Shown: piece by piece, positions 1,677-50,903 of the stretch
Layout of the letters: the number at the start of each line of letters is the position of its first letter
How positions within the stretch are numbered: position 1 is the first letter of the stretch
Assembly (NCBI GenBank): GCA_032117235.1
Contig: JAULZW010000004.1
Span: 1-51,422 of the forward strand
Length of the DNA: 51,422 nt
Reading direction: 5' to 3'
From: Minisyncoccota bacterium
GTDB lineage: Bacteria > Patescibacteriota > Minisyncoccia > SW-4-49-11
Translations under genes and position numbers: made by a program
The notes under the pieces: generated by a model
Told to the model about the DNA's origin: nothing
Databases searched by the model: none
Seen by the model: the letters and a program-made list of their open reading frames with translations, nothing else

Positions 1677-1734
1677 AAATTAGATTTACAGATAGATTTA
1701 AATGAATATACTATGTAGTTAGCTTTAAATAGGT

Positions 1735-1774: not shown

Positions 1775-1827
1775 AGGTTAGATGTAAGTGTCATATAATT
1801 CCTAAAAACCAACACAAGTCTTATATT

Positions 1828-3054: not shown

Positions 3055-3137
3055 AATACCAATTATGTTTAAATAATTTATGTATGTATATTACATTATT
3101 TTTATATTTTATACTAGTTATGTTAATATATTTTGAT

Positions 3138-3166
3138 TTGACAGATTCAAACAATGAATATATAAT
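3138..3166 (+). promoter_or_regulatory. sigma-70-type promoter upstream of nusA
   Basis: TTGACA (3138-3143), 17-nt spacer, TATAAT (3161-3166). Perfect consensus. Confidence 0.6.
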
Positions 3167-3275
3167 ATAGTGTATATATGATATGGGTAATTTATTATGG
3201 ATCTGCTTTTTAGATAAAAAAGTAGATCTATTTTAGTTAATATGATATCATTATATTAACACTAAGAATATTGAT

Positions 3276-4511
3276 ATGTTAAATGCTAAACAATTTACTT
3301 TTGCCATAACCCAAATTGCAGAGGAAAAAAATATACCAGAAGAAAAAATAATAGAAGTAATTGAAACTGCCATAGCTGCCGCTTATAAAAAAGACTATGG
3401 TGAAAAAAGTCAGATCATTAAATCTAAGCTTAATAAAGACTCAGGTATTTTCTCCATTTTTAGACATAAAACTGTGGTTAATGTTGATGAAGAAGGTTTT
3501 ATTGTGTTGAGTGAGGATCAAAATACTGACGACTTAGGACCTATTCAAGAGGAGATTACAGATGGTGTTAGAAAAATCAGATTTAATCCAGACAGGCATA
3601 TTTCTATTGCTGACGCTCAGTCTATCCAGTCAGAAATACAAGAGGGAGAAGAAATTGTAGAGGAATTAGAGCCAAAAGAAGATTTTGGTAGAGTGGCAGC
3701 TCAAACTGCTAAACAGGTCTTGATGCAGAAAATACGTGAAATTGAGAGAACTACTGCTTTTGAGGCTTATAAAGATAGAGTGGGGGAAATTATTGCTGGA
3801 ACCATTCATAGAATGGATAGGGGGATTATATTCGTAGATCTTGGTAAAGGAGTTGGATTATTGTTTCCATCCGAGCAAGTTTATGCTGACAATTATCGTA
3901 TAGGTAATAGACATAAATTTTTAATTCAAAATGTAGAGACTACCGAGAGAGAACCTAATATTGTTTTATCTAGAAGAAGTACTGATTTTGTCAAAACATT
4001 GTTTGCCTTGGAAGTTCCAGAAATATTTGCAGGTTCGGTTGAGATAGTTTCTATTGCAAGAGATGCTGGTGTTAGAACTAAGTTATCAGTCAAAGCTAAC
4101 GGAGATGGTATTGACCCAGTCGGAGCTTGCGTAGGACAGAGGGGAACTAGAGTACAGTCTATCATTAATGAATTAGGTGGAGAAAAAATTGACATTATAG
4201 AATACTCTGATAATTTAGAGGATTATATTAAAGCTGCTATTGCTCCAGCTAAAGTAGAAGGTATTACTATTGATGAGGATAATAGACAAGCTATTGTTAT
4301 AGTACCACAAGATCAGTTGTCTTTAGCTATTGGTGGATCTGGACAAAATGTTAGATTAGCCTCTAGATTAACTGGCTATGATATTAACTTGAATCCAGAG
4401 TCTAAAAATGAAGCTTCTAAAGCTGTTGATACAGTTAAAGTTGCTATGGACAATGATGTTCAAGAAGCGATTATTGAAGATAATGTTACTAATACAGAGT
4501 CTGATATATAA
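3276..4511 (+). CDS. nusA: transcription termination/antitermination factor NusA
   Basis: N-terminal NusA domain, S1-like region, then two KH modules (GACVGQRGTRVQSIINELGGEKIDII; LSLAIGGSGQNVRLASRLTGYDINL). Confidence 0.9.
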   Translation: MLNAKQFTFAITQIAEEKNIPEEKIIEVIETAIAAAYKKDYGEKSQIIKSKLNKDSGIFSIFRHKTVVNVDEEGFIVLSEDQNTDDLGPIQEEITDGVRKIRFNPDRHISIADAQSIQSEIQEGEEIVEELEPKEDFGRVAAQTAKQVLMQKIREIERTTAFEAYKDRVGEIIAGTIHRMDRGIIFVDLGKGVGLLFPSEQVYADNYRIGNRHKFLIQNVETTEREPNIVLSRRSTDFVKTLFALEVPEIFAGSVEIVSIARDAGVRTKLSVKANGDGIDPVGACVGQRGTRVQSIINELGGEKIDIIEYSDNLEDYIKAAIAPAKVEGITIDEDNRQAIVIVPQDQLSLAIGGSGQNVRLASRLTGYDINLNPESKNEASKAVDTVKVAMDNDVQEAIIEDNVTNTESDI

Positions 4512-5480: not shown

Positions 5481-6464
5481 ATGTTATCAATCGAAGAAGT
5501 TATCAAGGAATACAAATCAGATATAAAAAACTCTCTAGATATAGCTAAATTAGATCATAAGTATCTATCTAGAAAAGGCTATATTGCTGAGTTATTCAAA
5601 TCAATTAAAGATGTTATACCAGAAAAAAAATCAGCCTATGGACAACAGCTTAATAAGTTAAAGCAAGAAATAGAAGAGTATATAAATAAAAAAAATAAAA
5701 CTCAAGAGGTTGAGTCTAAATTAGAGATTTACCCAGTTCATCCTTTAGACATACAAGCTAGTGGGGGTAGTTTATCTCCAATATCAAGATTAATATTTAA
5801 AATTCAAGATATTTTTGAAGAAATAGGCTTTTCAATTGCAGTGGGACCAGAGTTAGAATCTGAAAAGTATAATTTTGATTTACTAAATATTCCTGAATCT
5901 CATCCATCTAGGGATGTTTGGGATACTATTTGGGTTCAGAATCCAGCAGGAGTACAATCATTACTTCGTACTCATACCTCTCCAGTACAAATTCGCTATA
6001 TGGAAAATAATAAGCCTCCAATCAGGATTATAGCACCTGGAAAAGTTTACCGTTATGAAGCTACTGATTCTACGCATGAGACAGTATTTCATCAAGTTGA
6101 AGGTTTGTTATTAGATGATAAAGCTAGTATTGCTACATTTAAAGGAGTGATTAATTATTTTTTCAAAGAATTATTTCAACAAGAAATCAATTTTAGGCTA
6201 AGACCAAGTTATTTCCCCTTTACTGAACCAAGCTTTGAAATAGATATTTGGCTACAAGATAAGTGGCTAGAAATTGCTGGAGCTGGTATGGTCAATCGTA
6301 GGGTGTTGGAAAATGGAGGAATTACAGACCCTAATATACAAGGATTTGCCTTTGGTTTCGGAGTAGAAAGATTAGCTATGATACTATATGGAATTGATGA
6401 TATTAGACTAATTCATTCTGCTGATATTAGATTTACATCTCAATTAGGTAAAATACAATTATGA
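5481..6464 (+). CDS. pheS: phenylalanyl-tRNA synthetase alpha subunit
   Basis: Class II core motifs (FPFTEPSFEIDI, GFAFGFGVERLAMILYG). Overlaps pheT by 4 nt. Confidence 0.92.
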   Translation: MLSIEEVIKEYKSDIKNSLDIAKLDHKYLSRKGYIAELFKSIKDVIPEKKSAYGQQLNKLKQEIEEYINKKNKTQEVESKLEIYPVHPLDIQASGGSLSPISRLIFKIQDIFEEIGFSIAVGPELESEKYNFDLLNIPESHPSRDVWDTIWVQNPAGVQSLLRTHTSPVQIRYMENNKPPIRIIAPGKVYRYEATDSTHETVFHQVEGLLLDDKASIATFKGVINYFFKELFQQEINFRLRPSYFPFTEPSFEIDIWLQDKWLEIAGAGMVNRRVLENGGITDPNIQGFAFGFGVERLAMILYGIDDIRLIHSADIRFTSQLGKIQL

Positions 6465-8752
6465 AAATTCCATATTCAATTATCAAAGCCTTTATTCCGG
6501 CATTAACCCAATCTCCAAAAGAATTAGCTGATCTCATCACTCTTAAAAGTTATGAAGTTGACTCGGTATATAGCCCAGGTGAGTCTTTAAAAAATGTAGT
6601 AGTAGGTCATATTCAAAAAGTTACCCCACATCCCAATGCAGATAAGCTTAATATTGCAGAAGTTTTGGTTGATAATAGTGAGGTTTTAACTATTGTCTGT
6701 GGAGCTAAAAATATTGAATTAGGTCAAAAAGTAGCAGTTGCTAAAATAGGGACTACTTTACCTAATGGATTGAATATTCAAGCCGTCAATTTAAGAGGAC
6801 AGGATTCTTTTGGTATGATTTGTTCCTCTCAGGAGTTGGGTCTGCAGGAAGTGTCAGATGGGATTTTAGTTTTACCTAGTATTGCAGAAGTAGGTCTGCC
6901 GGTAGCTGATGTCTTAGGGCTCAATGAAGCAATTATCGATATAGACAATAAAGGTTTAGGTACTAGAGCTAGTGACTCATCTTCATTTTATGGAGTAGCA
7001 AGAGAAATTGCTTTAATTACTAATAACTCATTGCAACCATTAGAAATATCACCAATTCCAGCTAAAAAAAATCTAAAAAAACATATTATAGTTCAAACTA
7101 ATTTATGTAAATATTACTCAATATTAGAATTATCAGGACTTAGTAAATATAAATTTGATTCTAATATTTTGAGCAAAGGCACTTATAGAGTTGATCTATA
7201 TGTACAAACTGATATATTCAAGCTTGATTCTAGTATTCATAAAACTTTAGCTATTTTAAATCAAAAAATTCATCATCCAGCGGTAGATTTAGGAAATTAT
7301 ATTTTGTTTGAGACGGGGCAGCCAGTGCATGTATTTGATGCAGAAAAAGTCAAAGGCAATAACATTACAATAAGAGAGGCTAAGAAAGGAGAAATCTTCA
7401 TAACTTTAGATGATATAGAAATTTTATTAGAAGATGGAGATATTGTTATTTGTGACGCTGAAGGAATCATAGCTTTAGCTGGCATAATGGGAGGAGCTTC
7501 TACAGCAGTAGGGGATGGTACAACCCGTGTTTTTATTGAAAGTGCTAACTTTGATAACAATAGAATTCGTCAAACAGCTCGAAGGTTAAAGCTTTTAACT
7601 GAATCAGCTAAGAGATTTGAGAGGTCGATTCCAGTTGAGTTTGCTGATATTGCAATTCAGAGAACTATAAATTTAGTAGAAAAATCAGGGTTACAAATTC
7701 TGGACTATATCAATAGCGGGAATAATAAAACTGAACATAAAAGTATACAATTAGATTACAATTACGTTAGAAAATATATAGGCTCAGATATTAGTGATAA
7801 TGAAATTAGTCAAATTTTAAAATCATTACATATAGAAATACATACTTCATTTGGGTCTAAAAAGCATAACCTCACATCTCCATATTGGCGACTAGATTTA
7901 AATACTCCAGAAGAGTATATTGAAGAAATAGCTCGTCTTTACGGATATGATAATATTTCTGCTAAATTAGATATTCCTAAAATGCAAGCAAACTCTGATT
8001 TGCTGTTTAATTTTAAACGTAAATTATCTCAAGAATTATCTAAAATTGGATATAATGAATTGCTTACATATCCATACAGTGAAAAAGGTACATTGCAACT
8101 ATTAAATCCAGTTGATGATTCAAAGCCATTCCTTAGACAGAATTTAATAGATTCTATGGCTAAGGCTATAGACAATAGTTCCAAATATAGAGATACATTA
8201 AGCTTGTTTGAGATTAGTAATGTATTTACTGCAGAACAACATTTACATCTAAGCTTAAGTTATTATGATAAAGATACAGATATAATTACAAATACCAATC
8301 AGGCTTATGTTGATTTCATCAGAGTAATTGCTCAACTTGGATTTGATTATACTAAATTCTCAACTCAAATAGTAGATGATAATAATATTATTAATTATTC
8401 TAAACAAGTTGTAGGTTGGGTGGATATATCAGGTGTAATTGAAATAGATTTATCAGTTTTAGTAAATCTATTATCTCCAATGTCAGAAAATTATACTCCA
8501 ATTCCAAAATATCCAGCTGTAAAAAGAGATATTACAATAACAGTTTCAAATAGTAGCTCTGCTCAAGAAGTATATAATAAAATACAAGATTTAGTTTCTC
8601 CAAGGTGTTATTATATAGGGTTTAGAGATAAGTTCCAAAATGGAGACTTTACTAATTATACTTTCCATCTTGAATTTAGGGATATGGATAAATCTCTCTC
8701 AGATGATGAAGTTAATTTGGAAATAGACTTAATCCACAAAAAGTTTAAATAA
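6461..8752 (+). CDS. pheT: phenylalanyl-tRNA synthetase beta subunit
   Basis: N-terminal OB tRNA-binding domain (VVGHIQKVTPHPNADKLNIAEV), then B3/4, B5 and a C-terminal FDX-ACB-like region. Translationally coupled to pheS. Confidence 0.9.
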   Translation: MKIPYSIIKAFIPALTQSPKELADLITLKSYEVDSVYSPGESLKNVVVGHIQKVTPHPNADKLNIAEVLVDNSEVLTIVCGAKNIELGQKVAVAKIGTTLPNGLNIQAVNLRGQDSFGMICSSQELGLQEVSDGILVLPSIAEVGLPVADVLGLNEAIIDIDNKGLGTRASDSSSFYGVAREIALITNNSLQPLEISPIPAKKNLKKHIIVQTNLCKYYSILELSGLSKYKFDSNILSKGTYRVDLYVQTDIFKLDSSIHKTLAILNQKIHHPAVDLGNYILFETGQPVHVFDAEKVKGNNITIREAKKGEIFITLDDIEILLEDGDIVICDAEGIIALAGIMGGASTAVGDGTTRVFIESANFDNNRIRQTARRLKLLTESAKRFERSIPVEFADIAIQRTINLVEKSGLQILDYINSGNNKTEHKSIQLDYNYVRKYIGSDISDNEISQILKSLHIEIHTSFGSKKHNLTSPYWRLDLNTPEEYIEEIARLYGYDNISAKLDIPKMQANSDLLFNFKRKLSQELSKIGYNELLTYPYSEKGTLQLLNPVDDSKPFLRQNLIDSMAKAIDNSSKYRDTLSLFEISNVFTAEQHLHLSLSYYDKDTDIITNTNQAYVDFIRVIAQLGFDYTKFSTQIVDDNNIINYSKQVVGWVDISGVIEIDLSVLVNLLSPMSENYTPIPKYPAVKRDITITVSNSSSAQEVYNKIQDLVSPRCYYIGFRDKFQNGDFTNYTFHLEFRDMDKSLSDDEVNLEIDLIHKKFK

Positions 8753-38201: not shown

Positions 38202-40046
38202 ATGGCACAAGGTCAAAATTCCCATTTTGAGGCACAGCTTTTCAAGGCAGCAGATAAACTTCGTAAAAATATTGATGCAGCAGAATATAAAAATGTAGCT
38301 CTTGGACTTATTTTTCTTAAATATATTTCAGAATCTTTTCAAGAACTTTATGACAAATTAGCTCAGGATGAATTCAGTGATCCAGAAGACAGAGATGAAT
38401 ATATTGCCGAGAATATTTTCTTTGTACCCGAACAGGCAAGATGGAAAAATCTCCAAGCCAAAGCAAAACTCCCAACTATTGGACAAGAGCTTGATGAGGC
38501 AATGGAGGTAATCGAGAAAGAAAATCCCGAGCTCAAAAACGTACTACCCAAAGTATTTGGAAAGCCTAATTTAGATAAAGCTTCACTCGGACAATTGATT
38601 GACCTTATTTCTAATACAGAATTACAAGTAGAAAATACTAAATCCAACCTGCCTACCGGAGCTTCGGCGCAGGCAGGAGATTTATTTGGAAGAGTATATG
38701 AATATTTTCTTGGAGAATTTGCCAATGCCGAAGGGAAAAAGGGAGGACAATTCTATACCCCTAAATCCATAGTAAAACTAATGGTAGAAATGATAGAACC
38801 CTACAAAGGTCGTGTCTATGATCCCGCTTGTGGTTCTGGAGGAATGTTTGTGATGAGTGAAAAATTTGTACAAGAACACTCAGGAAATATCAAAGACATC
38901 ACTATTTATGGACAAGAATCCAATCAAACAACTTGGAAGCTCTCCAAAATGAATCTTGCAATCCGTAATATAAACTCACAATTTGTAGCTTGGAATACCG
39001 AAGGAAGTTTTCTCAAAGATGCACATCCTGACCTCAAAGCCGACTATATTCTCGCAAATCCTCCATTTAATCAATCAGATTGGGGAGTAGATATACTTCA
39101 AGATGATGCAAGGTGGAAATATGGAAAACCACCAGCAGGGAATGCTAATTTTGGATGGATGGAGCATATGTTATATCACCTTGCACCTCATGGAGTAATG
39201 GCAACTGTACTAGCTAATGGAAGCCTTAGCTCCAATACTTCAGGAGAAGGAGAAATCCGCAAAACTTTGATTCAATATGATTTGGTGGAATGTATCGTTG
39301 CACTCCCAAAGCAACTATTTTATAATACTGGAATACCCGCCTGTATTTGGATATTGAGAAGAGAAAGAACAACACGCCTGCCTGGCAGTCAGACAGGCAA
39401 TAAAGAAATTCTCTTCATCGATGCCTCAGATATGGGATTCCTCAAAGACCGAGTTCATAGAGAATTTACTGAAGAAGATATAGACACTATTGCCAACACC
39501 TATCATAATTGGCGAAAAAATCCTGAACAATACGAGGATATCAAAGGCTTTTGTAAATCAGCACAAAGGGATGAAGTAGAGAAACATGGTTTTGTTCTCA
39601 CTCCTGGACGCTATGTAGGGATTAAAGATGCAGAAGATGACCTGCCTGCGCCGAAGCCGAACACATTTTATGTTTATGTTATCAAATGTAGTAATGATAC
39701 CTTATATATTGGGCAAACACAAGATTTGAGGAAAAGATGGAAAGAACATATTCTAGGAAAAGCTTCTGACTGGACAAAAAAATATCCACCAAAATTTATT
39801 ATTCACCATGAAATATTCTCTACAAGAGAAGATGCAGTTAATCGAGAAAAAGAATTAAAAACAACCAATGGAAGAAGATATTTGAAAAAAATTATTGAAG
39901 ACGGATCGGCGAGGCAGGCAGGCGGAATACCATTTGAAGAGAAAATGCAAAAACTCACTACCACTCTTGCTGAGCAATTTGCCAAAGAAGAAAAAATGAA
40001 TGTAGAAATCAAAAAGCAACTTGCTAAAATTGGATTTAGTATTTAA
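38202..40046 (+). CDS. hsdM: type I restriction-modification methyltransferase subunit HsdM carrying an internal GIY-YIG domain
   Basis: HsdM N-domain ([31 protein letters not shown]), AdoMet motif [10 protein letters not shown], motif IV NPPFN, C-terminal helix [17 protein letters not shown]. At 614 aa it is ~110 aa longer than the ~500 aa usual for HsdM; the excess is accounted for by three GC-rich inserts. Confidence 0.92.
38648..38677. repeat. 30-nt GC-rich palindromic insert, family 1 (CCTGCCT...AGGCAGG), in frame in hsdM
   Basis: cctgcctaccggagcttcggcgcaggcagg, read as [10 protein letters not shown]. Its reverse complement shares its first 17 nt (cctgcctgcgccgaagc) with the left end of the GIY-YIG insert at 39641. 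Confidence 0.8.
39376..39398. repeat. 23-nt hairpin insert, family 2 (GCCTGCCTGG-n4-CAGACAGGC), in hsdM
   Basis: gcctgcctggcagtcagacaggc matches 21 of 23 nt of 44015-44037 in hsdR. The 9-nt arms pair with one mismatch. Confidence 0.75.
39641..39922 (+). mobile_element. 282-nt TIR-bounded in-frame insert encoding a GIY-YIG (URI/UPF0213-like) nuclease domain
   Basis: The left end is cctgcctgcgccga. The right end ...tcggcgaggcaggcagg has the reverse complement cctgcctgcctcgccga. The inverted terminal repeat is therefore CCTGCCTG + CGCCGA with a 3-nt indel. The cargo encodes [28 protein letters not shown]...[12 protein letters not shown]. The length is divisible by 3. It sits in the linker where ordinary HsdM reads ...GRYVG..EDD-(G)EPFEEKM.... 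Confidence 0.7.
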
Positions 40047-40058
40047 AAAATAATAAAT

Positions 40059-41063
40059 ATGCCTCAATTAACAAACTATCAAAATCTCGCTCAAGATATA
40101 ACAAAAATTCTTGAAAATGGTAGAAATCAAGCTGTATCAAATGTAAATACAATACTCCTTCAAACATATTGGAAAGTGGGAAAAAGTATTGTTGAATTTG
40201 AGCAAAAAGGAAATGTAAAGGCAGAATATGGCAAAGAATTACTCATTTCATTATCCAAAGAACTTAAAAAATATGGGAAAGGATTTAGTAGAAGCAATTT
40301 GCAGTATATGCGGCTTTTGTATATATTTTTTCCAGATTTGCCAGACAGGTCTGGCAGATTGACTTGGAGTCATTATGTGGAGATTTTGGGAGTTTCAGAC
40401 GAGCTTGCTCGTAGTTTTTATGAAAAACAATGTATCTTAGAAAATTGGTCGGTCAGAGAGCTAAAAAGACAAAAACAATCAATGTTATTTGAAAGATTTG
40501 CTCTTGGGAAAAATAAGGAAGAAATTTTGGAGCTTTCACATAAGGGGCAAACAATTCAAAAAGCACAAGATATTATTAAAGAGCCATATATTCTTGAATT
40601 TCTTGGTATACCAGAGCCTCATAATTTTTCAGAAGCTGAACTAGAACAAAAAATTATTGATAACTTGCAAATGTTTTTATTAGAACTTGGAAAAGGTTTT
40701 ACTTTTATCAAAAAGCAATTTCGCATTAGTTTTGATAGTCGTCATCATTATATAGATCTGGTGTTTTATCATCGTATTTTGAAGTGTTTTGTGCTTATTG
40801 ATCTCAAAATCGGCGAGGCTGATCATGTAGATGTAGGTCAGATGAATATGTATCTCAATTATTTCAAGACAGAAGAAAACACCGAAGGAGACAATGAACC
40901 AATCGGAATAATTCTTAGTGCTGAAAAGAATGACATCAAGATGGAATATGCAATGGGCGGAATCAGCAATCAGATGTTTGTATCTAAATATCAACTCTAT
41001 CTCCCAAAACCAGAAGAGTTAGAGGCAGAAATAGAGAATTTTTTATCTCACAATGGAAAATAA
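40059..41063 (+). CDS. YhcG-like PD-(D/E)xK nuclease (DUF1016 family)
   Basis: LTWSHYVEIL block and a C-terminal nuclease core (IDLVFYHRILKCFVLIDLKIGE). This family is often embedded in type I R-M loci. Confidence 0.8.
   Translation: MPQLTNYQNLAQDITKILENGRNQAVSNVNTILLQTYWKVGKSIVEFEQKGNVKAEYGKELLISLSKELKKYGKGFSRSNLQYMRLLYIFFPDLPDRSGRLTWSHYVEILGVSDELARSFYEKQCILENWSVRELKRQKQSMLFERFALGKNKEEILELSHKGQTIQKAQDIIKEPYILEFLGIPEPHNFSEAELEQKIIDNLQMFLLELGKGFTFIKKQFRISFDSRHHYIDLVFYHRILKCFVLIDLKIGEADHVDVGQMNMYLNYFKTEENTEGDNEPIGIILSAEKNDIKMEYAMGGISNQMFVSKYQLYLPKPEELEAEIENFLSHNGK
40339..40356. repeat. perfect 8+8 palindrome tgccagac-ag-gtctggca inside the DUF1016 gene
   Basis: Read directly. It shares the CTGGCAGA / CAGACAGG strings with the family 2 hairpins. 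It encodes DLPDRSGR where relatives usually have a short loop before LSWSHY. Confidence 0.6.
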
Positions 41064-42393
41064 TATGACAGATAAACTACAAAAAAGTAATTTTGTAAAC
41101 TCCACATCCTCGCCAACACAAAACAACAATGTGTCTTCATTGAATAATCCCGTAGAGTCGGCGCCCTCGCCGACATATTCCAACATATCCTCGCCGACAT
41201 ATCCTCAAGACTGGCAAGAGACGACTTTGGGGGAGGTTTGTGAGATCAAAGGTGGGAAGAGGTTGCCAAAAGGAGAAACCCTTGTATTAGAAAAAACAAG
41301 TCATCCATACATTCGTATAACTGATCTTGAAAATAATCAAATCAAAAAGCATCAATTACAATTTGTTACTGATGAAGCTTTTCAAAACATTTCGAGGTAT
41401 ATTGTAAATACTGGTGATGTAATTGTCTCTATTGTTGGAAGTATTGGTTTTGTTGCCTTCATTGATGAAGATTTGGATAATGCTAGTTTAACTGAAAACT
41501 GTGTGAAATTCGTTAACCTAAAAAATCTTGATTCAAAATTTTTATATTACTTTTTAATCTCAAAAAATGGGCAAGAAGAAATAGCTAAAAATACAGTTGG
41601 AGCTGTACAAAAGAAGTTGCCAATTTATGGAGTCCAAAATATTCAACTCCTCCTCCCACCTCTCCCAGAACAAAAAGCCATCGCCTCAGTATTAAGTAGC
41701 TTTGATGATAAGATTGAGCTTTTGCGAGAGCAAAATAAAACATTAGAAGAGATGGGGCAGAACATATTCAAAGAATGGTTCCTGCCTAGCCGCCCGTCTG
41801 TCGGTCGGACAGGGCAGGCAGGTGGGAAGTATGGTGTAGATAATCCTAACGACTTGCCTGAGGACTGGAGAATCGGGAAGTTGGGGGATATCTGTGAAAT
41901 TACATCAGGTAAAAGACCAGAAAATATAAGTGATACAAAAATAGGTATACAACAAATTCCGGTACTTGGAGCAACAAAAATTATGGGATATGTAGATAAA
42001 TATTTATTTGACGGAAAAACACTTGTAATTGGAAGAGTTGGAACTCATGGGGAGGTTCAAAGGTTTAATGAAAAAATATTTCCATCTGATAATACTCTAG
42101 TTTTAAAATCTGATAATTTTATTTTTGTATATCAAATTTTGAAAAGTATTGATTATGTAAAAATGAATAGAGGTGGAGTTCAGCCCCTTATTACACAAAC
42201 AGATTTGAAAAATTATGAGATTATAATTCCAAGTAATGAATTATTGAAAAAGTTCAAAGAAACAATAAATCCAGTATTCGAAAAAATAGATAAAAATAAT
42301 GTTCAAATCCAATTCCTCGCTCGAACTCGTGATGAGCTTTTACCAAAATTGATGAGTGGGCATGTGAGGGTGAATTATCAAGATAAACTATGA
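41053..42393 (+). CDS. hsdS: type I R-M specificity subunit HsdS (two TRDs)
   Basis: It has TRD1, the central conserved helix LPPLPEQKAIASVLSSFDDKIELLREQNKTLEEMGQNIFKEWF, TRD2, and the distal conserved helix (RTRDELLPKLMSG). The N-terminal ~50 aa are low-complexity and REP-derived. Confidence 0.88.
   Translation: MENNMTDKLQKSNFVNSTSSPTQNNNVSSLNNPVESAPSPTYSNISSPTYPQDWQETTLGEVCEIKGGKRLPKGETLVLEKTSHPYIRITDLENNQIKKHQLQFVTDEAFQNISRYIVNTGDVIVSIVGSIGFVAFIDEDLDNASLTENCVKFVNLKNLDSKFLYYFLISKNGQEEIAKNTVGAVQKKLPIYGVQNIQLLLPPLPEQKAIASVLSSFDDKIELLREQNKTLEEMGQNIFKEWFLPSRPSVGRTGQAGGKYGVDNPNDLPEDWRIGKLGDICEITSGKRPENISDTKIGIQQIPVLGATKIMGYVDKYLFDGKTLVIGRVGTHGEVQRFNEKIFPSDNTLVLKSDNFIFVYQILKSIDYVKMNRGGVQPLITQTDLKNYEIIIPSNELLKKFKETINPVFEKIDKNNVQIQFLARTRDELLPKLMSGHVRVNYQDKL
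41151..41174 (+). repeat. REP (GTAG + hairpin), + orientation, inside the hsdS 5' region
   Basis: cGTAGa gtcggcg ccct cgccgac, read as VESAPSPT. Right-arm half copies cctcgcc(g/a)ac also occur at 41108-41117 and 41189-41198. Confidence 0.8.
41781..41822. repeat. 42-nt GC-rich palindromic insert, family 1, in frame in hsdS
   Basis: cctgcctagccgcccgtctgtcggtcggacagggcaggcagg, read as LPSRPSVGRTGQAG. It lies directly after the central conserved helix and uses the same L-P...Q-A-G reading phase as 38648 and 39641. Confidence 0.75.
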
Positions 42394-43274
42394 GAATCTC
42401 ATCAAAAACAATAGATTACCTAAAGGACATTATCACTGGAGATTCTAAGAAAACTAGATATTTATCAGGTCCCCAGCTTGTGGAGTTTTTTAATGAGCTT
42501 GGGTGGCAAGATATATATGGACAAGGGTTTCCTAGTAGGTGGGAATATACAAAGAGAAAATTATTTGAATTAAATCAACTAGATAGGATTGAAGAAATAA
42601 TAGAGCATTATTATAGCCCAATAAATTTTATTGAAGATAAAGAGGGATATAAATATTTAATTAAAGAATTGAATGAATATCTTGCTTTTGAGGATCTTGA
42701 GCTAAAAGTGGAAACTAAAACAGTAAAATTACAACCCAAAATAAATGTCGGCGAGGGCGCCGACTCTACGAAATTCAAGGATGCCGACTGGGGAGACGAC
42801 TATACGAAACAAATTTCAATCAATTTAGAACAATTAAATATAGACCCTAAATTGACTGAAATAATAAAATATCGTTTAATAGAGATCCAAAGAGGTATAG
42901 AAAATAATTGTCCTTTATCAGTTATTATTTTAGTAGGTTCAATATTAGAAGCTGTATTTTTCGATTTAGCACATAAGAATAAGCCGTTATTTAATAGAGC
43001 ACATGCTAGTCCTAAAATTTCTGATAAAGTAAAATTTTTTGGAGAATGGACACTTGGGAACTATATTGATGTTGCAAAAGAATTGGGATATATAAAAGAA
43101 GATCAAAAAAAGTTTAGTATGATATTGAGAGATTTTAGAAATTATATACATCCATCCAAGCAATTAACAGAAGATTTTCATCCTAGCATAGATACAGCTA
43201 AGCAATGTATTTATGTATTAGAGGGTTCTATAAATCAAATTATTGCAAAGACAGAATATGAAAAGGAAAAATAA
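42390..43274 (+). CDS. hypothetical R-M-embedded protein with a C-terminal HEPN-like RxxRNxxH motif
   Basis: The start overlaps the hsdS stop (ATGA). The C-terminal helical region contains ILRDFRNYIHP. It carries an in-frame REP (VGEGADSTKF). Confidence 0.6.
   Translation: MRISSKTIDYLKDIITGDSKKTRYLSGPQLVEFFNELGWQDIYGQGFPSRWEYTKRKLFELNQLDRIEEIIEHYYSPINFIEDKEGYKYLIKELNEYLAFEDLELKVETKTVKLQPKINVGEGADSTKFKDADWGDDYTKQISINLEQLNIDPKLTEIIKYRLIEIQRGIENNCPLSVIILVGSILEAVFFDLAHKNKPLFNRAHASPKISDKVKFFGEWTLGNYIDVAKELGYIKEDQKKFSMILRDFRNYIHPSKQLTEDFHPSIDTAKQCIYVLEGSINQIIAKTEYEKEK
42747..42772 (-). repeat. REP, - orientation, inside ORF 42390..43274
   Basis: gtcggcg aggg cgccgac tCTACgaa. The 45-nt block 42744-42788 matches 43711-43755 at 41 of 45 positions. 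Confidence 0.85.
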
Positions 43275-43920
43275 TCGTTTATCAAATGATTTGTATCAAG
43301 GCGGGTATTGGTATTTTATCACCTTATGCTCTTATAATATGCAATGTATTTTTGTAGAGTCGGCGCCCTCGCCGACACAATCAAGTCAAAAATACAAACT
43401 TAATCACTTGGGGAAAATTATTGAAAAAGTGTGGTTGAATACAACTCAATGTTATTCGGATATTATTCTTGATGAATATGTTATTATGCCGAACCATTTT
43501 CATGGTATAATTGGACTTGATGAGAATTCTTGTTCTTCGGTGACAAGAAAAAAGGTGAGTTTGGGGGATGTGGTCAGTTCGTTTAAGAGTGTTTCTTTGA
43601 GGGAGTTTAAGGAGAGTGTCGGCGGGGGTGTGAGGGAAAATGTCGGCGAAGATTTGAATGACAATGTCGGCGAGGGCGCCGACTCTACGAAGTTCGGTGA
43701 TGTGAAGTACAATGTCGGCGAGGGTGCCGACTCTACGAAGTTTAAGGGTGCCGACTCTACGAAGTCTACTTTGAATAAATATGGAACTTTCTGGCAAAAA
43801 TCTTTTTATGACCATATTATTAGAAATGATAAAGATTTATTTCGTATACAGGAATATATTATAAATAACCCTATAAATTGGGAAATGGATTCTCTGCATC
43901 CTAACAACTTTAATAAATGA
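43243..43920 (+). CDS. REP-associated tyrosine transposase (RAYT; Y1/HUH, IS200-like, COG1943 type)
   Basis: It shows YWYFITLCSYN, the HUH motif in VIMPNHFHGII, the C-terminal block FWQKSFYDHIIRNDKDLFRIQEYIINNP, and the candidate catalytic Tyr in QEYIINNP. An alternative start lies at 43258. The ORF stays open despite REP-derived inserts. Confidence 0.75.
   Translation: MQRQNMKRKNNRLSNDLYQGGYWYFITLCSYNMQCIFVESAPSPTQSSQKYKLNHLGKIIEKVWLNTTQCYSDIILDEYVIMPNHFHGIIGLDENSCSSVTRKKVSLGDVVSSFKSVSLREFKESVGGGVRENVGEDLNDNVGEGADSTKFGDVKYNVGEGADSTKFKGADSTKSTLNKYGTFWQKSFYDHIIRNDKDLFRIQEYIINNPINWEMDSLHPNNFNK
43353..43376 (+). repeat. REP, + orientation, inside the RAYT gene
   Basis: tGTAGa gtcggcg ccct cgccgac, read as VESAPSPT in the same frame as the hsdS copy. 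Confidence 0.85.
43616..43763 (-). repeat. phased array of full and partial REPs inside the RAYT gene
   Basis: Left arms gtcggcg occur at 43618, 43642, 43666 and 43714. Full REPs lie at 43666-43691 and 43714-43739, with a right-arm half at 43746-43763. Spacings are 24 or 48 nt. The array reads ...NVGEGADSTKFGDVKYNVGEGADSTKFKGADSTKS. Confidence 0.85.
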
Positions 43921-43924
43921 CAAT

Positions 43925-46900
43925 ATGCCTACCCTCAACGAATCCCATATAGAACAGAATTTGATAGATCTCCTTGTAGCTCAGGGCTATGAGTATTTTT
44001 ATGGTCTGGATATTGCCTGCCTGGCTGGCAGACAGGCTCCGTATTCGGCAAGTCCACAAAGAGAAAGTTTTAATAGTGTTATATTGGAAAATCATCTCAA
44101 GGAATCTCTCAAAAGATTGAATCCAGATATCCCTGAATCGGCTCGGCATGAGGCTTATCAGCATATTATAAATCTTGGCTCTGCTGATTTGATGGCGAAT
44201 AATGAAAAATTTCATACTTATTTGACTGATGGGATTACGGTTGAATATGTCAAACCTGCCAATGAGTCAGGCGGGGATAATGCTACAAAGGGTATCAATG
44301 TTAAGCTTCTTGATTTGGAGAATGTCTCAAACAATATCTTTTGGGTGGTGAATCAATTCGTTATCAAAGAGAATAATAATGAGAAGAGATTAGATTTGGT
44401 GATTTTTGTGAATGGGCTTCCTTTGGTTGTGGTGGAGTTGAAGAATGCTACTGATGAAAAGGCTACTTTGGAGAGGGCTTTTACTCAAATTCAGAATTAC
44501 AAAAAAGCTGTTCCGAGTATTTTTTATTATAATGCTTTATGTATTATCTCGGATGGGATTGATGCTCGTATGTCGAGTGTGTCTGCTCCTTTTGAGCGAT
44601 TTGTTGCTTGGAAGTCTCCTGAGAAAAAGGAGAATGGGATTGTGCCTGAAATGCAGATTATGGCTGAAAAAATGCTTAATCCTGAGGTTTTGCTTCGATT
44701 GATTCGATATAATACGGTTTTTGAACAAGAGGAGCAAAAGGATGAAAAAACGGGGTTATTATCTGTGGTGAAGATTAAGAAAATTGCTGCCTATCATCAA
44801 TATTATGCGGTGGAAAAGGCGGTTAAGGAAACTTTGAGGGCTACTCATTCTGATGAGGGTAATAGGAAAATTGGGGTGATTTGGCATACTCAAGGTTCGG
44901 GGAAGTCTTTGTCTATGGTGTTTTATACGGGGCAAATTGTGGTGGAACCAGAGATGAAGAATCCGACTATTGTTATTTTGACGGATAGGAATGATCTTGA
45001 TGATCAGTTATTCACGACTTTTGGAAATTGTAAGCAATTATTAAGGCAAACTCCTATGCAAGCGGAAAGTCGTGAGCATTTAAAAGAGCTTCTCAAGGTT
45101 GCTGGGGGTGGTATTATTTTTACAACTATTCAAAAATTTGCTCCTCGTGAGGGGAATGTGTATGAGACTTTATCTGAGCGGTCGAATATTGTGGTTGTGG
45201 CGGATGAGGCTCATCGTAGTCAATATGGATTCAAGGGGCGAGAGGTAGAAACGGTGGATGGGTCTGAAATTCGATATGGGAATGCTAAGTATCTGAGGGA
45301 TGCTTTGCCGAGGGCTTCTTTTATTGGATTTACGGGGACACCGATTGAAAGGGAAGATAGATCTACAAGAAATGTGTTTGGTGATGAAATTGATATTTAT
45401 GATATTAAACAGGCGGTGGATGATGGGGCTACGGTGCCGATTAGTTATGAATCGCGGTTGGTTAAAATTAAATTGAATAAGGAGTTGGTCAATAAAATTG
45501 ATTATGCTATTGATGAGATTGAAGGTGCTACTGAGGAGCAAAAGGAAAAGGCGAAAAAGAAAAATGCTCAAATTGATGCGGTGGTTGGTCATCCTGATAG
45601 ATTAAAGGATTTGGCTAAGGATATTGTGGAGCATTTTGAGGCGAGGCAAAGAACCTTTGAGGGGAAGGCGATGGTGGTATGTATGACAAGGCAAATTGCG
45701 GTTTGGTTATATAAGGAAATTATTGCTCTTCGTCCTGATTGGCATAGTGATGAATTGATGCAAGGGAAGCTCAAAATTGTGATGACTTCAAGTAGTGATG
45801 ATCCTGAAGATTTTCAAGCTCATCATACGAATAAGAAGGATAGAAAAAAACTTGCTCTGAGGCTCAAGGATATCAATGATCCTCTTCAAATGGTGATTGT
45901 GCAATCTATGTGGTTGACGGGATTTGATGTGCCGTGTTTGCATACGATGTATATTGATAAAAAGATGCAGGGTGCTAATTTGATGCAGGCTATTGCTCGG
46001 GTTAATCGGGTATATAAGGATAAACCAGGAGGATTGATTGTGGATTATATTGGTATTGGTCAGGATCTTAGAAAGGCAATGGGGGTTTATACTCAAAGTG
46101 GGGGAGAAGGTCAAGCTGTGTCGGATATTGCAGAGGCAATTGCTGGTATGAAGACCAAATTTGAGATTGTGGAGCAAATGTTCCACCAGCCTTTGCCAAG
46201 TCTTCGTCTGGCAGGTGGCTTTGAATATAAAAATTATTTTAAGGCTGAGAGTAGTGAAAAATTACATATTTTATTGGGGGCTACAAACTTTATTTTGCAA
46301 AATGATAATCTAAAAAATAGGTTTTTGACGGAAGTGACTGCTTTGTCTAAGTTATTTGCGATGGCTGTTCCAAGTTTTGAGGCTGAGCAAGTAAGAGATG
46401 AAGTTGCATTCTTCCAAGCGGTTAAAGCCCGTATCAATAAATTTACACCTAGTGGGGGAGTCTCAGACAGGCAGGTCGAAACGGCGGTAAGACAAATTGT
46501 AGAAGAAGCTCTGGCGAGTGATGGAGTGGTGGATGTGTTCGAGGCTGCGGGGATGAAAACTCCGACACTGGACATTCTATCAGAGGAATTTTTGCTTGAG
46601 GTCAAAAATATGGAGCAAAAAAATCTTGCCTTTGAACTTCTTCGTAAGCTCCTGAATGATGAGGTAAAATTGCGAAAAAGAAAAAATATGGCTCAAGGAA
46701 AAAAGTTTTCTGAGATGCTTGAGAGTGTAATCAATAGGTATCATAATAATCAAATTGATACGGCTCAAGTGATTCAGGAACTTTCAGAAATTGCTCGGGC
46801 GATGAAATTGGAGGACAAAAAAGCAGAAGATATTGGACTTACTCCAGAAGAATATGCATTTTATAGTGTACTTGCTCAGAATGATTCTACGAAATTTTTA

Positions 46901-47775: not shown

Positions 47776-48450
47776 ATGGCTTTGAATATAGTTCAATTAA
47801 GGGAGAGCTTGGGATTATCTCAGAGTGAGATTGCTCAGAGAATTGGTATATCTCGTAGTTCTTATATCAAATTAGAGAAGGGGGAGTATGACCTAAAGAT
47901 TTCAGAGGCTAATAAATTGGCGGATATTTTTGGTATATCTCTGGAGGAGGTGGAGTCTGGTCAATATGTTGATTATGAGAAGTATAAGGAGATGATTCAA
48001 TATATAATTAGGCGATTCCCGAAGGGTGTTCCTAAGACTAAGTTGGCTAAATTACTTTATTTGGTGGATTTTGCTTGGTTTTATAATCATTATGAGAGTA
48101 TGAGTGGTATGAAATATCGTAAAATTAAATTTGGACCTGTGCCAGATTCATATTTTCGAGCTGTGGAGGAGATGGAGGAGGATGGTTTGTTGAGAGTGGA
48201 GGAATTACCTTATCTTGATAGTGTTGCATATAGTATCAAGCCCACTAAGGCTTTGGATAATAAGTCTATTGTAAAAATTGATTCTGAGGCTTTGAGTTTG
48301 ATTGATAAAATTATTTATAAATGGAGGTCTGCTCGTACGAATGAGATTGTGGCTTTTACTCATAATCAGCTTCCATATTCTCTTTGTAGTGATGGTGAGT
48401 TTATTCCTTATGAACTGATTTTGCAGGAAGATTCAGAATATGTCTACTAA
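47776..48450 (+). CDS. XRE-HTH + Panacea/SocA (DUF4065) domain antitoxin
   Basis: N-terminal HTH (LRESLGLSQSEIAQRIGISRSSYIKLEKGE). The Panacea-like block is KTKLAKLLYLVDFAWFYNHYESMSGMKYRKIKFGPVPDSY. Confidence 0.75.
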   Translation: MALNIVQLRESLGLSQSEIAQRIGISRSSYIKLEKGEYDLKISEANKLADIFGISLEEVESGQYVDYEKYKEMIQYIIRRFPKGVPKTKLAKLLYLVDFAWFYNHYESMSGMKYRKIKFGPVPDSYFRAVEEMEEDGLLRVEELPYLDSVAYSIKPTKALDNKSIVKIDSEALSLIDKIIYKWRSARTNEIVAFTHNQLPYSLCSDGEFIPYELILQEDSEYVY

Positions 48451-48838
48451 ATATTATATTGTAGTTGAAGATTTTTCTGAAAGACATTATATTAAAAAAT
48501 TTAGTAAAAAATATAAGAAGGAGTGGTCTCCTGTATGGATTGGTATTCAGGAGTCTTTGAAAAGATTTGACCAACTTTATTTGAAAAAACGAGTGGTTTT
48601 GGTTGCGGGTACTCAGCAATTTGGTATTTTTAAGATGGATTTTAAGGTTACTGCCACTGAATCTGCTAGAAAGGCTGGGAATAGATGTATTGTGCTTCTG
48701 GATAGGGATAGGAATGCTGTTAATGTTTTGTTGGTTTATCATAAGGATCATCTAGGTAAGGGTAATGAAACTAGTGAGTGGAAAAATCTGATTCAAAAAA
48801 ATTATCCTAAAGATATGTTAAAGGATTTTAGGCTGTAG
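48440..48838 (+). CDS. putative toxin, RelE/ParE-superfamily-like
   Basis: Overlaps the antitoxin gene by 11 nt. F.KKFSKKYKK near the N-terminus and KAGNRCIVLLDRDRNAVNVLLVYHKDH resemble the GGYRvIY...vvlL.i..K pattern of RelE/ParE-fold toxins. Confidence 0.45.
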   Translation: MSTKYYIVVEDFSERHYIKKFSKKYKKEWSPVWIGIQESLKRFDQLYLKKRVVLVAGTQQFGIFKMDFKVTATESARKAGNRCIVLLDRDRNAVNVLLVYHKDHLGKGNETSEWKNLIQKNYPKDMLKDFRL

Positions 48839-48904
48839 GTTTATACGGATATATTTTAAAATATAGGCTATTATTATGGTATAATGGAGTATATATAAAT
48901 TATT

Positions 48905-49885
48905 ATGAATACAAAACCGCATACAATTATTTATCAAGCAAAAAATGGTGCTATTGAGTTGAAGGGTGACTGGACTCAGGATACGATTTGGGCTAGTCAA
49001 GCTCAGATTGCTGAACTTTTTGCTGTAGATAGATCAGTGGTAACAAGACATATTAAAAATATTTTTTTAGATAGGGAATTGGATGCAAAAGTGGTTAGTG
49101 CAAAATTTGCACAGACCACTTCTCACGGAGCTTTAAAAGGTAAGACGCAAACAAAAAATGTGACTTTTTATAATTTAGACATTATTCTGGCAGTTGGTTA
49201 TAGAACAAAATCTTCTATGGCAGTTACCTTTCGTCAATGGGCTACACAAACATTAAAACAGTATATTACGAAAGGATATAGTATTAATAAAAAAGTATTG
49301 GCCCAGAATTATGATGAGTTTCTCAAGGCTATTGAGACGATTAAGACCTTAATCCCTGTAAATAGTGAGGTTAAGACTGGTGATGCTTTAGAATTGGTTA
49401 AGTTTTTTGCTGAGACTTGGTTTGCTCTTGATGCGTATGACAAATCTGATTTGCCACAATCAGGTCTCAATAAGTCTCAAGTGGAATTCACTGCTGATGA
49501 ATTAATACAAGCTTTGGTTGAGCTAAAGCAAGATTTGTATAAAAAGAAGATGGCTACTGAGTTATTTGGACAAGAAAAACAACCTAATGCGATAGCAGGA
49601 ATTGTTGGTAATATTTTTCAATCTGCTTTTGGGGAAGAGATATATCCTTCTATTGAAGAGAAGGCTGCCCATTTATTATATTTTATTATTAAAAATCATC
49701 CTTTGAATGATGGAAATAAAAGATCAGGTGCTTTTGCTTTTATTTGGCTTTTGAATAAGACCAAAACATTGAATACTTCTAAAATAACTCCCCAAGTATT
49801 GACTACATTAACCCTATTGGTTGCTGAAAGTGATCCTCACAATAAAGATCAAATTATAGGTTTGATTCTACAAATATTGAAGTAA
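48905..49885 (+). CDS. RhuM-family N-terminal domain fused to a Fic/Doc domain (Doc-type GNKR motif)
   Basis: The RhuM block is WASQAQIAELF..DRSVVTRHIKNIF...YNLDIILAVGYRTKSSMAVTFRQWATQTLKQYITKGY. The C-terminal motif HPLNDGNKRSG fits the Doc variant HxFx(D/N)(A/G)NKR. Confidence 0.8.
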   Translation: MNTKPHTIIYQAKNGAIELKGDWTQDTIWASQAQIAELFAVDRSVVTRHIKNIFLDRELDAKVVSAKFAQTTSHGALKGKTQTKNVTFYNLDIILAVGYRTKSSMAVTFRQWATQTLKQYITKGYSINKKVLAQNYDEFLKAIETIKTLIPVNSEVKTGDALELVKFFAETWFALDAYDKSDLPQSGLNKSQVEFTADELIQALVELKQDLYKKKMATELFGQEKQPNAIAGIVGNIFQSAFGEEIYPSIEEKAAHLLYFIIKNHPLNDGNKRSGAFAFIWLLNKTKTLNTSKITPQVLTTLTLLVAESDPHNKDQIIGLILQILK

Positions 49886-49910
49886 TAGTTAGTAACTATT
49901 CTATATAAAA

Positions 49911-49996
49911 GGCGACGAGAGGTCGCCCCTACGAAAAATAATGTCGGCGGGGTCGCCGACTCTACGAAATAATGGAGGGACTAAAGCCCTACGAGG
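49911..49996 (-). repeat. intergenic cluster of three hairpin+CTACGA REP units
   Basis: The three units are ggcgac-gagag-gtcgcc cCTACgaa (49911-49935), gtcggcg-gggt-cgccgac tCTACgaa (49943-49968) and aggg-actaaag-ccct-ACGA with CTAC at 49989-49992. Confidence 0.8.
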
Positions 49997-50016
49997 ACAA
50001 GAAATGTATAAAAATA

Positions 50017-50025
50017 TGCTATAAT
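50017..50025 (+). promoter_or_regulatory. extended -10 element (TGCTATAAT) upstream of the Bro-N gene
   Basis: Part of the 16-nt string aaaaatatgctataat shared with the hsdM upstream region. Confidence 0.4.
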
Positions 50026-50054
50026 GTAAATATACGAATACATCAAAAAATTAT

Positions 50055-50903
50055 ATGTCTAACACTCACAATAAAATAGCTTTATTTGAAAAGAAACAAA
50101 TTCGTAAAATTTGGTATAATGATGAATGGTATTTTTCGGTAATAGATATAGTCGGGGCTTTAACCGAATCAGCAGACCCAAAAGACTATTGGTATAGGAT
50201 CAAAAAAAGAGCTACTGATGAAGAAGGAATTGAACTATCGACAATTTGTCGACAGTTGAAATTAGTTGCTCCAGATGGAAAAATGAGAGAAACCGACTGT
50301 GCTAATACCGAAGACATACTTAGAATTATCCAATCTATTCCCTCCCCCAAAGCTGAACCATTCAAAAGATGGTTAGCTAAAGTAGGGTATGAGAGAATAG
50401 AAGAGATAGAAAACCCAGAACTTGCTCAAGAAAGGATGAAAAAACTATATGAAGCAAAAGGATATCCTCAAGATTGGATAGACAAGAGACTTCGTGGAAT
50501 AGCAATTCGCCAAAACCTCACCGATGAATGGCAAGCAAGAGGCATCACTGGACAAAAAGATTATGCAATACTCACAGCCGAGATCAGCAAAGCAACTTTT
50601 GGTATAACCCCAAGCGAATATAAAAAACTCAAAAATATACCAGCAAAATCCAAAGCCAATCTCAGAGATAATATGACAGATTTGGAGCTTATTTTTACTA
50701 TGCTTGGAGAACGAGTCACCACAGAAATCTCCAAAACAGAAAACCCAAAAGGAATGACCGAAAATAAAAAAGTAGCCCAGAGGGGAGGAACTGTAGCTGG
50801 TAATGCTAGAAAAGAAACAGAAAAAGAATTGGGTAAAAGTGTTATTAGTAAAGAAAATTATTTGGGAGATAATAAAAAACCTCTAATTAATAAAAAGAAA
50901 TAA
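50055..50903 (+). CDS. Bro-N domain DNA-binding protein (antirepressor-like)
   Basis: N-terminal FEKKQIRKIWYNDEWYFSVIDIVGALT fits the Bro-N pattern. The conserved C-terminal region contains NLRDNMTDLEL and GGTVAGNARKE. Confidence 0.7.
   Translation: MSNTHNKIALFEKKQIRKIWYNDEWYFSVIDIVGALTESADPKDYWYRIKKRATDEEGIELSTICRQLKLVAPDGKMRETDCANTEDILRIIQSIPSPKAEPFKRWLAKVGYERIEEIENPELAQERMKKLYEAKGYPQDWIDKRLRGIAIRQNLTDEWQARGITGQKDYAILTAEISKATFGITPSEYKKLKNIPAKSKANLRDNMTDLELIFTMLGERVTTEISKTENPKGMTENKKVAQRGGTVAGNARKETEKELGKSVISKENYLGDNKKPLINKKK

Follow-up and report, generated by a model that had tools for sequence, protein, structure and literature searches.

The stretch of DNA analysed here (51,422 nucleotides of contig JAULZW010000004.1 from a Minisyncoccota bacterium; hereafter the window) is AT-rich, with a GC content of ~30%, and carries at 38.2-47.1 kb a type I restriction-modification (R-M) operon in which copies of a repetitive extragenic palindrome (REP) lie inside genes, one of them encoding a REP-associated tyrosine transposase (RAYT). 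The operon reads hsdM (38202-40046, carrying an in-frame GIY-YIG domain), a YhcG/DUF1016 nuclease gene, hsdS, a gene for a 294-residue protein, the RAYT-like gene and hsdR, with junctions that either overlap or leave gaps of a few to 12 nt; intergenic space is almost nil. The type I specificity subunit gene hsdS (41065-42393, plus strand; Pfam Methylase_S, E 2e-45) likely begins at ATG 41065, which is coupled to the stop codon of yhcG (41063), with ATG 41053 as an alternative. It is followed on the same strand by the gene for the 294-residue, two-domain conserved protein (42390-43274), which is DUF4145-like, some of its homologues carrying PF13643 (DUF4145), and by the 220-codon RAYT/TnpA_REP gene (43258-43920), whose product is of the subclass 2.4 type (HUH motif NHFH, WQ and catalytic-tyrosine motif YIINNP).

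The REP is a 26-nt unit of the GTAG type, ATGTCGGCG-AGGG-CGCCGAC-TCTACGAA, in which a 7-bp stem closes a 4-nt loop and is followed by TCTACGAA; on the opposite strand the unit reads TTCGTAG plus hairpin, and this combination of tag and stem (TTCGTAG-A-GTCGGCG...) is present in all copies. Searching with the pattern GTCGGCGAGGGCGCCGACTCTACGAA and up to 3 mismatches returned six matches in the window as well as a seventh, partial copy, compared with no chance match in 100 shuffles. All copies named in an earlier note on this DNA are present: the hairpin followed by CTAC occurs on the plus strand at 42747-42772, 43666-43691 and 43714-43739, with a right-half copy at ~43747-43763, and the GTAG-plus-hairpin form at 41149-41174 and 43351-43376. 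Five full intragenic copies are spread over three genes of the R-M operon together with several half copies, of which those at 43618, 43642, ~41189-41199 and ~41107-41119 go beyond the earlier note; all are open and in frame. Only one of the seven window copies is intergenic, being the middle hairpin (49943-49968) of a minus-strand array at 49908-49995 that resembles a bacterial interspersed mosaic element (BIME) and consists of three distinct hairpins with CTACGA after each. The order within such arrays is fixed (GGCGAC..GTCGCC, GTCGGCG..CGCCGAC and GGAGGG..CCCTCC, with CTAC(G/A)AA after each) and the array type recurs in loci L032, L035, L038 and L041 (8039-8090) and in other related loci, each of the three stems being the internal hairpin of a separate RAYT lineage (L052; the window; L047 and L051).

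Alignment of 44 copies gives the consensus aTGTCGGCG-aGGg-CGCCGACTCTACgaAa. The earlier note had asked whether an AAT triplet in front of the hairpin belongs to the element: its AT does, whereas the A base before is not conserved. As single-stranded DNA (ssDNA), all hairpins fold at -7.4 to -10.2 kcal/mol (z -2.8 to -6.3), and the REP unit itself at about -9.4 kcal/mol (z -3.3 to -6.3). In exact form the 26-mer occurs only in uncultured Patescibacteria-type metagenome-assembled genomes (MAGs) labelled Paceibacteria, Parcubacteria or 'Saccharibacteria'. In having a GC-rich stem-loop, a GTAG foot, multiple copies in mostly extragenic clusters and an association with a RAYT gene, inside which (43258-43920) and within 2.2 kb of which copies lie, the element has the features of a GTAG-type REP.

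The translations given in the earlier note stand: VGEGADSTKF is read from the copies at 42747 (294-residue protein), 43666 and 43714 (both RAYT), and VESAPSPT from those at 41149 (hsdS) and 43351 (RAYT). Hairpin plus CTACGAA is likewise free of stops in its three forward frames (VGEGADST, SARAPTLR and RRGRRLYE); the GTAG orientation, a point absent from that note, contains TAG in one frame and so leaves two usable ones. Three proteins contain these peptides, whose composition resembles that of linkers, as would be expected if they were protein-level motifs (a shared functional peptide or low-complexity linker) and the likeness of the DNA were secondary. This is barely credible, as the DNA is identical also at synonymous positions and forms a perfect 7-bp palindrome with a GTAG tag, both orientations occur and yield unrelated peptides, and most copies in related genomes are intergenic; the intergenic and reverse-orientation copies effectively refute it.

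The transposase gene and its internal REPs

The RAYT has 4066 homologues, many of which are annotated PF01797 or RayT, and its best NCBIfam family is NF047646, REP-associated tyrosine transposase (E 9e-16, 58.1 bits). Escherichia coli TnpA_REP (4ER8) is its sole sequence match in the PDB, and an AlphaFold model of the protein (predicted local distance difference test score, pLDDT, 78.5; predicted template modelling score 0.74) retrieves with Foldseek first 4ER8_A (E 5e-5, probability 1.0) and then ISDra2 and IS608 TnpA; the model thus predicts an HUH/Y1 transposase fold. The protein contains the motifs PNHFHGII, WQKSFYDHIIRN and QEYIINNP, and H80, H82, W179, Q180, R189 and Y200 are invariant in two RAYT alignments. 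At the level of these motifs it matches the published signature of subclass 2.4, namely NH[IFV]H as HuH motif, WQ as W motif and YIxNNP as Y motif (PMC6006769).

Two sites of the gene are filled by the REP. At site N (43351-43376, plus strand, GTAG form), the TTT of TTTGTAG is a conserved Phe codon and the copy codes for the tip of a β-hairpin; the same position is filled in nine related RAYT genes, with three stem types. Site C (43612-43779, minus strand, hence the CTAC form on the plus strand) is an array of seven 24-nt units that includes the full REPs 43666-43691 and 43714-43739, the left halves at 43618 and 43642 and the right half at ~43747-43763, all in a perfect 24-nt (8-codon) register that had been overlooked. 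The loop that it encodes, which connects helix 102-120 to the WQKSFYDH strand, is disordered, residues 124-164 being the only long stretch of the model with a pLDDT below 50. Insert-free RAYT homologues of 163-170 residues are without both REP-coded segments, and the close orthologues in the window, L006 and L041 (82-93% identity) differ only by in-frame REP or half-REP indels of 8, 13 and 24 codons.

These three closest orthologues (L006 753-1382, L041 942-1619 and the window) are found in three separate type I R-M loci. In L006 and L041 the RAYT gene lies directly 3' of hsdS, and in the window directly 3' of the 294-residue protein gene that follows hsdS; hsdR comes directly after it in the window and L041, and none is seen in L006. 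Nucleotide homology of the window to L006 and L041 begins at the RAYT ATG and ends at the stop codon, so that what the loci share appears to be just the open reading frame (ORF).

In ten RAYT genes of the clade, one hairpin is present at both internal sites as an inverted pair that brackets the HUH motif, with arms complementary over 24-28 nt and ~260-290 nt apart across the coding sequence for the HUH core. The pair occurs with four stem types (GTCGGCG/CGCCGAC, GGAACC/GGTTCC, GGAGGG/CCCTCC and GGCGAC/GTCGCC), three of which are hairpin types of the intergenic arrays, and the hairpins co-vary between the sites. A flanking REP pair within 300 nt of a RAYT gene was not found in the Patescibacteria clade. 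At L052 the internal pair is reversed in orientation and displaced in position, an argument that these permissive loops have received insertions repeatedly.

Two RAYT pseudogenes, at L137 (~6266-6700) and L164 (~3281-3585), contain in-frame stops (e.g. NHFH*II) and retain both internal REPs; the former has a far longer insertion at site N.

Copies in hsdS and the 294-residue protein

The hsdS copy lies in the N-terminal leader (41149-41174, plus strand) and reads P-V-E-S-A-P-S-P-T; it belongs to a leader array (41107-41200, plus strand) in which half-REPs (CCTCGCCGACA-like) at ~41107-41119 and 41189-41199 stand on either side of it. The start of the gene, M(ENN)MTD, is homologous to MRNNMTD of L043, the MTD start being shared with orthologues P0242 and P0243, and its leader is exactly 93 nt (31 codons) longer than that of L043, the extra part holding the REP and half-REPs. 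Comparison with insert-free orthologues, which the earlier note had proposed, hence identifies the REPs as insertions both here and in the RAYT. Dozens of orthologues share the first target recognition domain (TRD1), and nearly all of those inspected start with M, a leader of a few to ~30 residues and IP.GW.ETTLGEV; the exceptions are two with unrelated N-terminal extensions and P0241, which is truncated by its contig, its 'L' start being a contig-edge artefact because L042 begins inside the leader. The L042 gene, whose TRD1 is 98% identical, has the same leader array with one synonymous and one non-synonymous change in another gene neighbourhood. There (1437-3954) hsdS is followed by a Shedu SduA gene, a CD-NTase and a Cap15-like effector, without the 294-residue protein and the RAYT, so the hsdS module occupies varied defence-island contexts.

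In the 294-residue protein, a composite minus-strand unit (42744-42810) made of the full REP 42747-42772, a TTCAAGG spacer and a degenerate right half codes for the inter-domain linker, which reads INVGEGAD-STKFKDAD-WGDDYTKQ in 24-nt register. The protein has no Pfam or NCBIfam match; it has 1827 homologues of ~290 residues, in whose alignment the REP falls in a variable linker column block, and its AlphaFold model comprises two folded domains joined by a linker in which residues 119-140 have a pLDDT below 50. The REP unit is present in P0121 (93% identical) and absent from P0122 (54% identical).

Segments 42744-42789 and 43711-43756 are identical at 42 of 46 positions, including the non-REP spacer TTYAAGG, and the reverse complement of the hsdS leader composite (half REP, 24 nt, full REP) aligns to RAYT positions 43631-43690 with the spacing of the RAYT array. 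Both support the claim of the earlier note that composite units had been copied and pasted between genes; because the two composites match the RAYT array beyond the REP itself, they are taken to be paralogous pieces of that array.

It might be objected that the copies reside in untranslated ORF extensions or in a dead gene, since stop-free GC-rich repeats lengthen ORFs in an AT-rich genome. Such effects do occur: at L035 (6170-6270), a stop-free REP array 5' of a ksgA/rsmA-like gene creates a false N-terminal extension of 35 codons (MSFRSGGFIPPLLVGAPF...), in L018 the REP precedes the first start codon, Di Nocera et al. caution that many REPs at N-termini are extragenic (PMC3733652), and across 41043-41200 minus-strand frames are open as well. 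As an explanation for the window this is nonetheless very unlikely. The earlier note had allowed that the hsdS extension might be untranslated, which is not borne out by the start shared with L043 and by a conserved P.xW.ETTLGEV motif that follows the REP with no in-frame start codon in between; the copy in the 294-residue protein is mid-gene, between two conserved domains; and in the RAYT the copies are flanked by conserved catalytic motifs, with indels that are all multiples of three. The comparisons therefore support the view that the REP-bearing regions of hsdS, the 294-residue protein and the RAYT belong to real genes and are predicted to be coding rather than mis-called extensions.

Reading frame and origin of the copies

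A census, limited to loci below a GC cut-off of 0.46, covers 66 distinct copies in related genomes and metagenomes; high-GC matches to a degenerate REP pattern (Desulfovibrionaceae, Planctomycetota, Dyella, Agromyces and soil contigs) were regarded as chance and left out. As many as 49 of the 66 have no long spanning ORF and typically belong to three-hairpin arrays (a few of these being in the RAYT pseudogenes of L137 and L164), 13 are inside intact RAYT ORFs and four in other long ORFs, namely hsdS in the window and L042 (one event), the 294-residue protein and L018. The last of these (at 4106) was rejected as an intragenic copy, lying upstream of the first start codon in an ORF with no Pfam hit, and every accepted non-RAYT intragenic case among the 66 copies traces to the locus studied here. 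A copy at L035 6243, which would have been in a different frame of a 332-codon stop-to-stop ORF, was also rejected, being upstream of any ksgA start codon, and L024 and L012 offered short ORFs only.

That the REPs are always translated in one frame per orientation, as stated in the earlier note, holds in the window, where the accepted intragenic copies keep their frame, but has little statistical weight. Only ~2 independent events are involved, because the RAYT copies are homologous or 24-nt-register duplicates and the copies in neighbouring genes derive from the RAYT array, and agreement by chance has a probability of ~1/6 (1/3 × 1/2 for the CTAC and GTAG forms respectively, one frame of the latter containing TAG). 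Related RAYTs, those of L047 and L051, read CTACGAA in another frame, as P-L-R-N. In the window RAYT itself the frame is fixed by homology, since the TTY of TTYGTAG is a conserved Phe codon and site C consists of register duplicates.

Across 76 RAYT ORFs from many phyla, tagged internal hairpins are read as GTA-G.. in 39 cases and.GT-AG. in 13, with none in the stop phase, and as.CT-AC. in 33, CTA-C.. in 22 and ..C-TAC in one. The window copies use the favoured phases; the counts are phylogenetically non-independent, and the bias hints that small, polar residues may be selected in these loops in preference to Arg-rich ones. From the sequence comparisons, the constant frame in the window is probably due for the most part to common descent and to the duplication, in 24-nt register, of a single array inside the RAYT.

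Building on the anatomy of the element, the insert-free orthologues, the frame-preserving indels, the loop location and the family membership established above, we favour, at a probability of roughly 0.7, a reading in which the REP is the cognate REP of a subclass 2.4-type RAYT, sits in frame in loops of that RAYT and has had pieces of its array copied into two neighbouring genes. The RAYT at 43258-43920, encoded in an AT-rich genome that is Patescibacteria-like, would have the 26-30 nt unit as its putative cognate GTAG-type REP. REPs would settle in frame within the transposase ORF, as they do in other members of subclass 2.4, in surface loops that tolerate extra residues, and here form an inverted pair, with the GTAG form after the conserved Phe of the first strand region and the CTAC form in the loop that leads up to the WQKSFYDH strand. 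The C-terminal copy would then expand by duplication of half and full units in 24-nt register, and pieces of the array (REP, spacer and half REP) would be copied into two nearby genes of the packed operon, landing at permissive sites, in HsdS the N-terminal leader and in the 294-residue protein the linker between its two domains, where their predicted products are short peptides rich in Gly, Ala, Ser, Pro, Asp and Thr. The constant frame would follow from descent and duplication, from indels of period 24 and from the TAG in one frame of the GTAG orientation, possibly together with selection against the Arg-rich alternative frames. Copying may have proceeded by RAYT-type ssDNA cleavage and strand transfer at C|T beside the hairpin, a route suggested by the TnpA_REP enzymes, which on ssDNA bind a hairpin with its GTAG and cut at C|T to either side, or by recombination or slippage between repeats; the demonstrations of such cleavage and strand transfer are in vitro and concern E. 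coli and other TnpA_REP only (PMC3333891, PMC8266576).

Several points weigh against this account. The census that stands in for a genome-wide one rests on related MAGs and metagenome contigs and covers 51 kb of the organism's own genome. The RAYT misses the NF047646 equivalog cut-off of 80 bits both at full length (58.1 bits) and after insert removal (68.4 bits), and is by its sequence a diverged relative of that family, not an equivalog by the NCBI threshold. For Pfam PF01797, which has a gathering score of 23, the intact protein reaches no more than 18.8 bits in a match split in two; in favour of the account, removing the REP-coded segments in silico raises the score to 26.5 bits, which passes, in one contiguous match. 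Finally, passive tolerance alone explains neither the identical hairpin at both sites across four stem types nor the conservation of the REP DNA between RAYTs at 50-64% amino-acid identity, where four-fold synonymous sites are saturated (18-21% identical) and the REP is nevertheless identical at 23-25 of 26 nt (88-96%); DNA-level constraint or concerted evolution is required.

The same conservation, all the more so as it affects the least constrained, disordered parts of the protein, can be read as a sign that the internal inverted pair is a selected functional part, either a binding or cleavage site by which the enzyme would regulate or process its own gene, or a set of protected master copies that would move with the ORF (a self-contained REPtron) and seed new REPs, those in the neighbouring genes included. 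The co-varying hairpins of the ten genes, the lack of flanking pairs within 300 nt in the clade, the end of homology between window, L006 and L041 at the ORF ends, and the derivation of the neighbouring copies from the internal array rather than from intergenic copies all fit such a role. We nevertheless consider it rather unlikely: gene conversion from abundant genomic REPs, i.e. concerted evolution, gives equal conservation and co-variation without function, the reversed and shifted pair of L052 suggests recurrent insertion into permissive loops, RAYT pseudogenes retain REPs too, and PMC6006769 takes such inserts as peripheral and without effect. In a stronger form, equally tentative, the transposase ORF would itself be the REPtron, its internal pair held by DNA-level selection or RAYT-driven rewriting, co-evolving with hairpin specificity and acting as donor for adjacent genes; a coding-embedded pair (REPIN) of this kind would let REP and RAYT persist and move jointly where intergenic space is nearly absent.

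On our preferred reading, with its pieces of a RAYT-internal array, a mobile hairpin would have been absorbed into proteins as loop or linker in a streamlined genome of the candidate phyla radiation (CPR), as judged from insert-free orthologues and structure models. The system offers a handle on how RAYT and REP are matched, be it by concerted evolution, self-regulation or master copies. It also bears on annotation, since the inserts lower hidden Markov model scores (to below the Pfam threshold here) and produce false ORF extensions in related CPR loci.

Known systems and further features of the window

The earlier note had regarded intragenic REPs as atypical, which is fair; they have already been published (PMC3733652, PMC6006769). 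In-frame REP insertions inside subclass 2.4 tnpA_REP genes were described by Quentin, Siguier, Chandler and Fichant in 2018 (PMC6006769), and the window RAYT shares with that subclass (Bertels group 4) the motif signature, GTAG-tagged REPs, in-frame inserts in peripheral loops and a variable HuH-to-Y distance. Word searches of PMC2817692, PMC3333891, PMC8266576 and PMC5581495 gave no mention of REPs inside the RAYT gene. Whereas the published inserts lie mainly between β3 (HuH) and αC and flanking REPs are also present, those of the window are at the tip of the β-hairpin after the first strand and in the αC-β4 loop, as an inverted pair without flanking REPs, and spread of an internal array into neighbouring genes is not described there. 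In agreement with PMC6006769, 62 of the 76 RAYT ORFs (L051-L130, many phyla) hold at least one internal GTAG- or CTAC-tagged GC-rich hairpin, usually just past the HUH motif and often identical to gene-flanking REPs; hairpin density is 2.58 per kb in the 76 ORFs, compared with 0.112 per kb in 481 neighbouring ORFs (23-fold).

Intragenic GTAG/CGTC REPs were reported by Di Nocera, De Gregorio and Rocco in 2013, together with the caution about N-terminal misannotation (PMC3733652). The likeness lies in GTAG-type REPs wholly within ORFs of known proteins, single or grouped and coding for 20-80 residues, often at N-termini or in modular proteins, and taken as tolerated insertions. Most hosts in that study are GC-rich Proteobacteria, Verrucomicrobia or Rickettsia, and DNA repair genes are frequent targets, whereas here the targets are R-M operon genes beside a RAYT and the donor is traceable to the internal array of the latter.

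The E. coli REP/BIME-REPtron (PMC3333891, PMC3479197, PMC8266576; 4ER8) likewise combines a 5' GTAG guide with a hairpin, clustered arrays and an HUH/Y1 enzyme, and its TnpA_REP, which binds GTAG plus hairpin on ssDNA and cleaves C|T, is the closest solved structure to the RAYT model. That enzyme belongs to subclass 2.2 (DHLH, WE, YIHYNP), and its REPs are bulged imperfect palindromes that are extragenic and flank the gene. REPINs (Bertels and Rainey 2011, PMC3116915) also treat two inverted REPs as a RAYT-associated unit; their spacer is short and non-coding, whereas the window arms are ~260-290 nt apart with the HUH core encoded between them, and the pair is accordingly not a REPIN in that sense.

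A literature search found no paper linking RAYT or REP to Patescibacteria. Intragenic REPs, and in-frame REPs inside a subclass 2.4 gene, are already known, and the window case is a local variant. What goes beyond the literature is the CPR lineage, the use of two unusual loops by an inverted pair that co-varies and has no flanking REPs, the array in 24-nt register, the traceable spread into two adjacent genes and the quantitative conservation at the DNA level.

In behaviour, the unit also recalls the Rickettsia palindromic elements (RPEs), reportedly described by Ogata et al. in 2000 as selfish palindromic repeats that lie in frame in coding genes and are translated as surface loops. RPE-1 is said to be about 100-150 bp long and to have no associated transposase or GTAG tag. 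The work on RPEs is also cited in PMC3733652. The window unit measures 26-30 nt, is GTAG-tagged and RAYT-associated, and has no sequence relationship to RPEs, the likeness being one of behaviour only.

A second family of GC-rich hairpins (CCTGCCT...AGGCAGG / GCCTGCCTGGCAGNCAGACAGGC) occurs in the same operon at 38651-38679, 39373-39398, 41783-41826 and 44015-44037, in frame within hsdM (twice), hsdS and hsdR, the hsdR copy being read in a different frame. The hsdS copy is an exact 42-nt insertion of 14 residues (LPSRPSVGRTGQAG) relative to P0242, P0246, P0252 and P0254; P0241 has the same insertion and one further copy. The pattern CTGCC-N8-GGCAG gave no match to this family, which was recovered by scans for GC islands and repeats. 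The GIY-YIG nuclease domain of HsdM (residues 489-558) is an in-frame insertion between the N6_Mtase domain and the C-terminal tail, and is bracketed by perfect 9-nt inverted arms, CCTGCCTGC and GCAGGCAGG (39641-39649 and 39914-39922), that equal the core of the second family. The domain looks as if seated inside a split hairpin element, which is only a lead, other 9-nt inverted pairs occurring by chance in the region.

On the 3' side of hsdR, positions 47776-50903 hold an HTH-SocA/Panacea antitoxin-like gene, a small ORF and genes for RhuM-Fic and Bro-N proteins, together the gene content of a defence or mobile island. GC-rich islands crowd into 37.7-51 kb, and 1-37 kb is nearly devoid of them. 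At the other end of the window, a 248-nt direct repeat (94% identity) links the window start (1-248) with 1015-1262 within the first long ORF (90-1676), which also contains a 33-nt tandem pair at 565-630.

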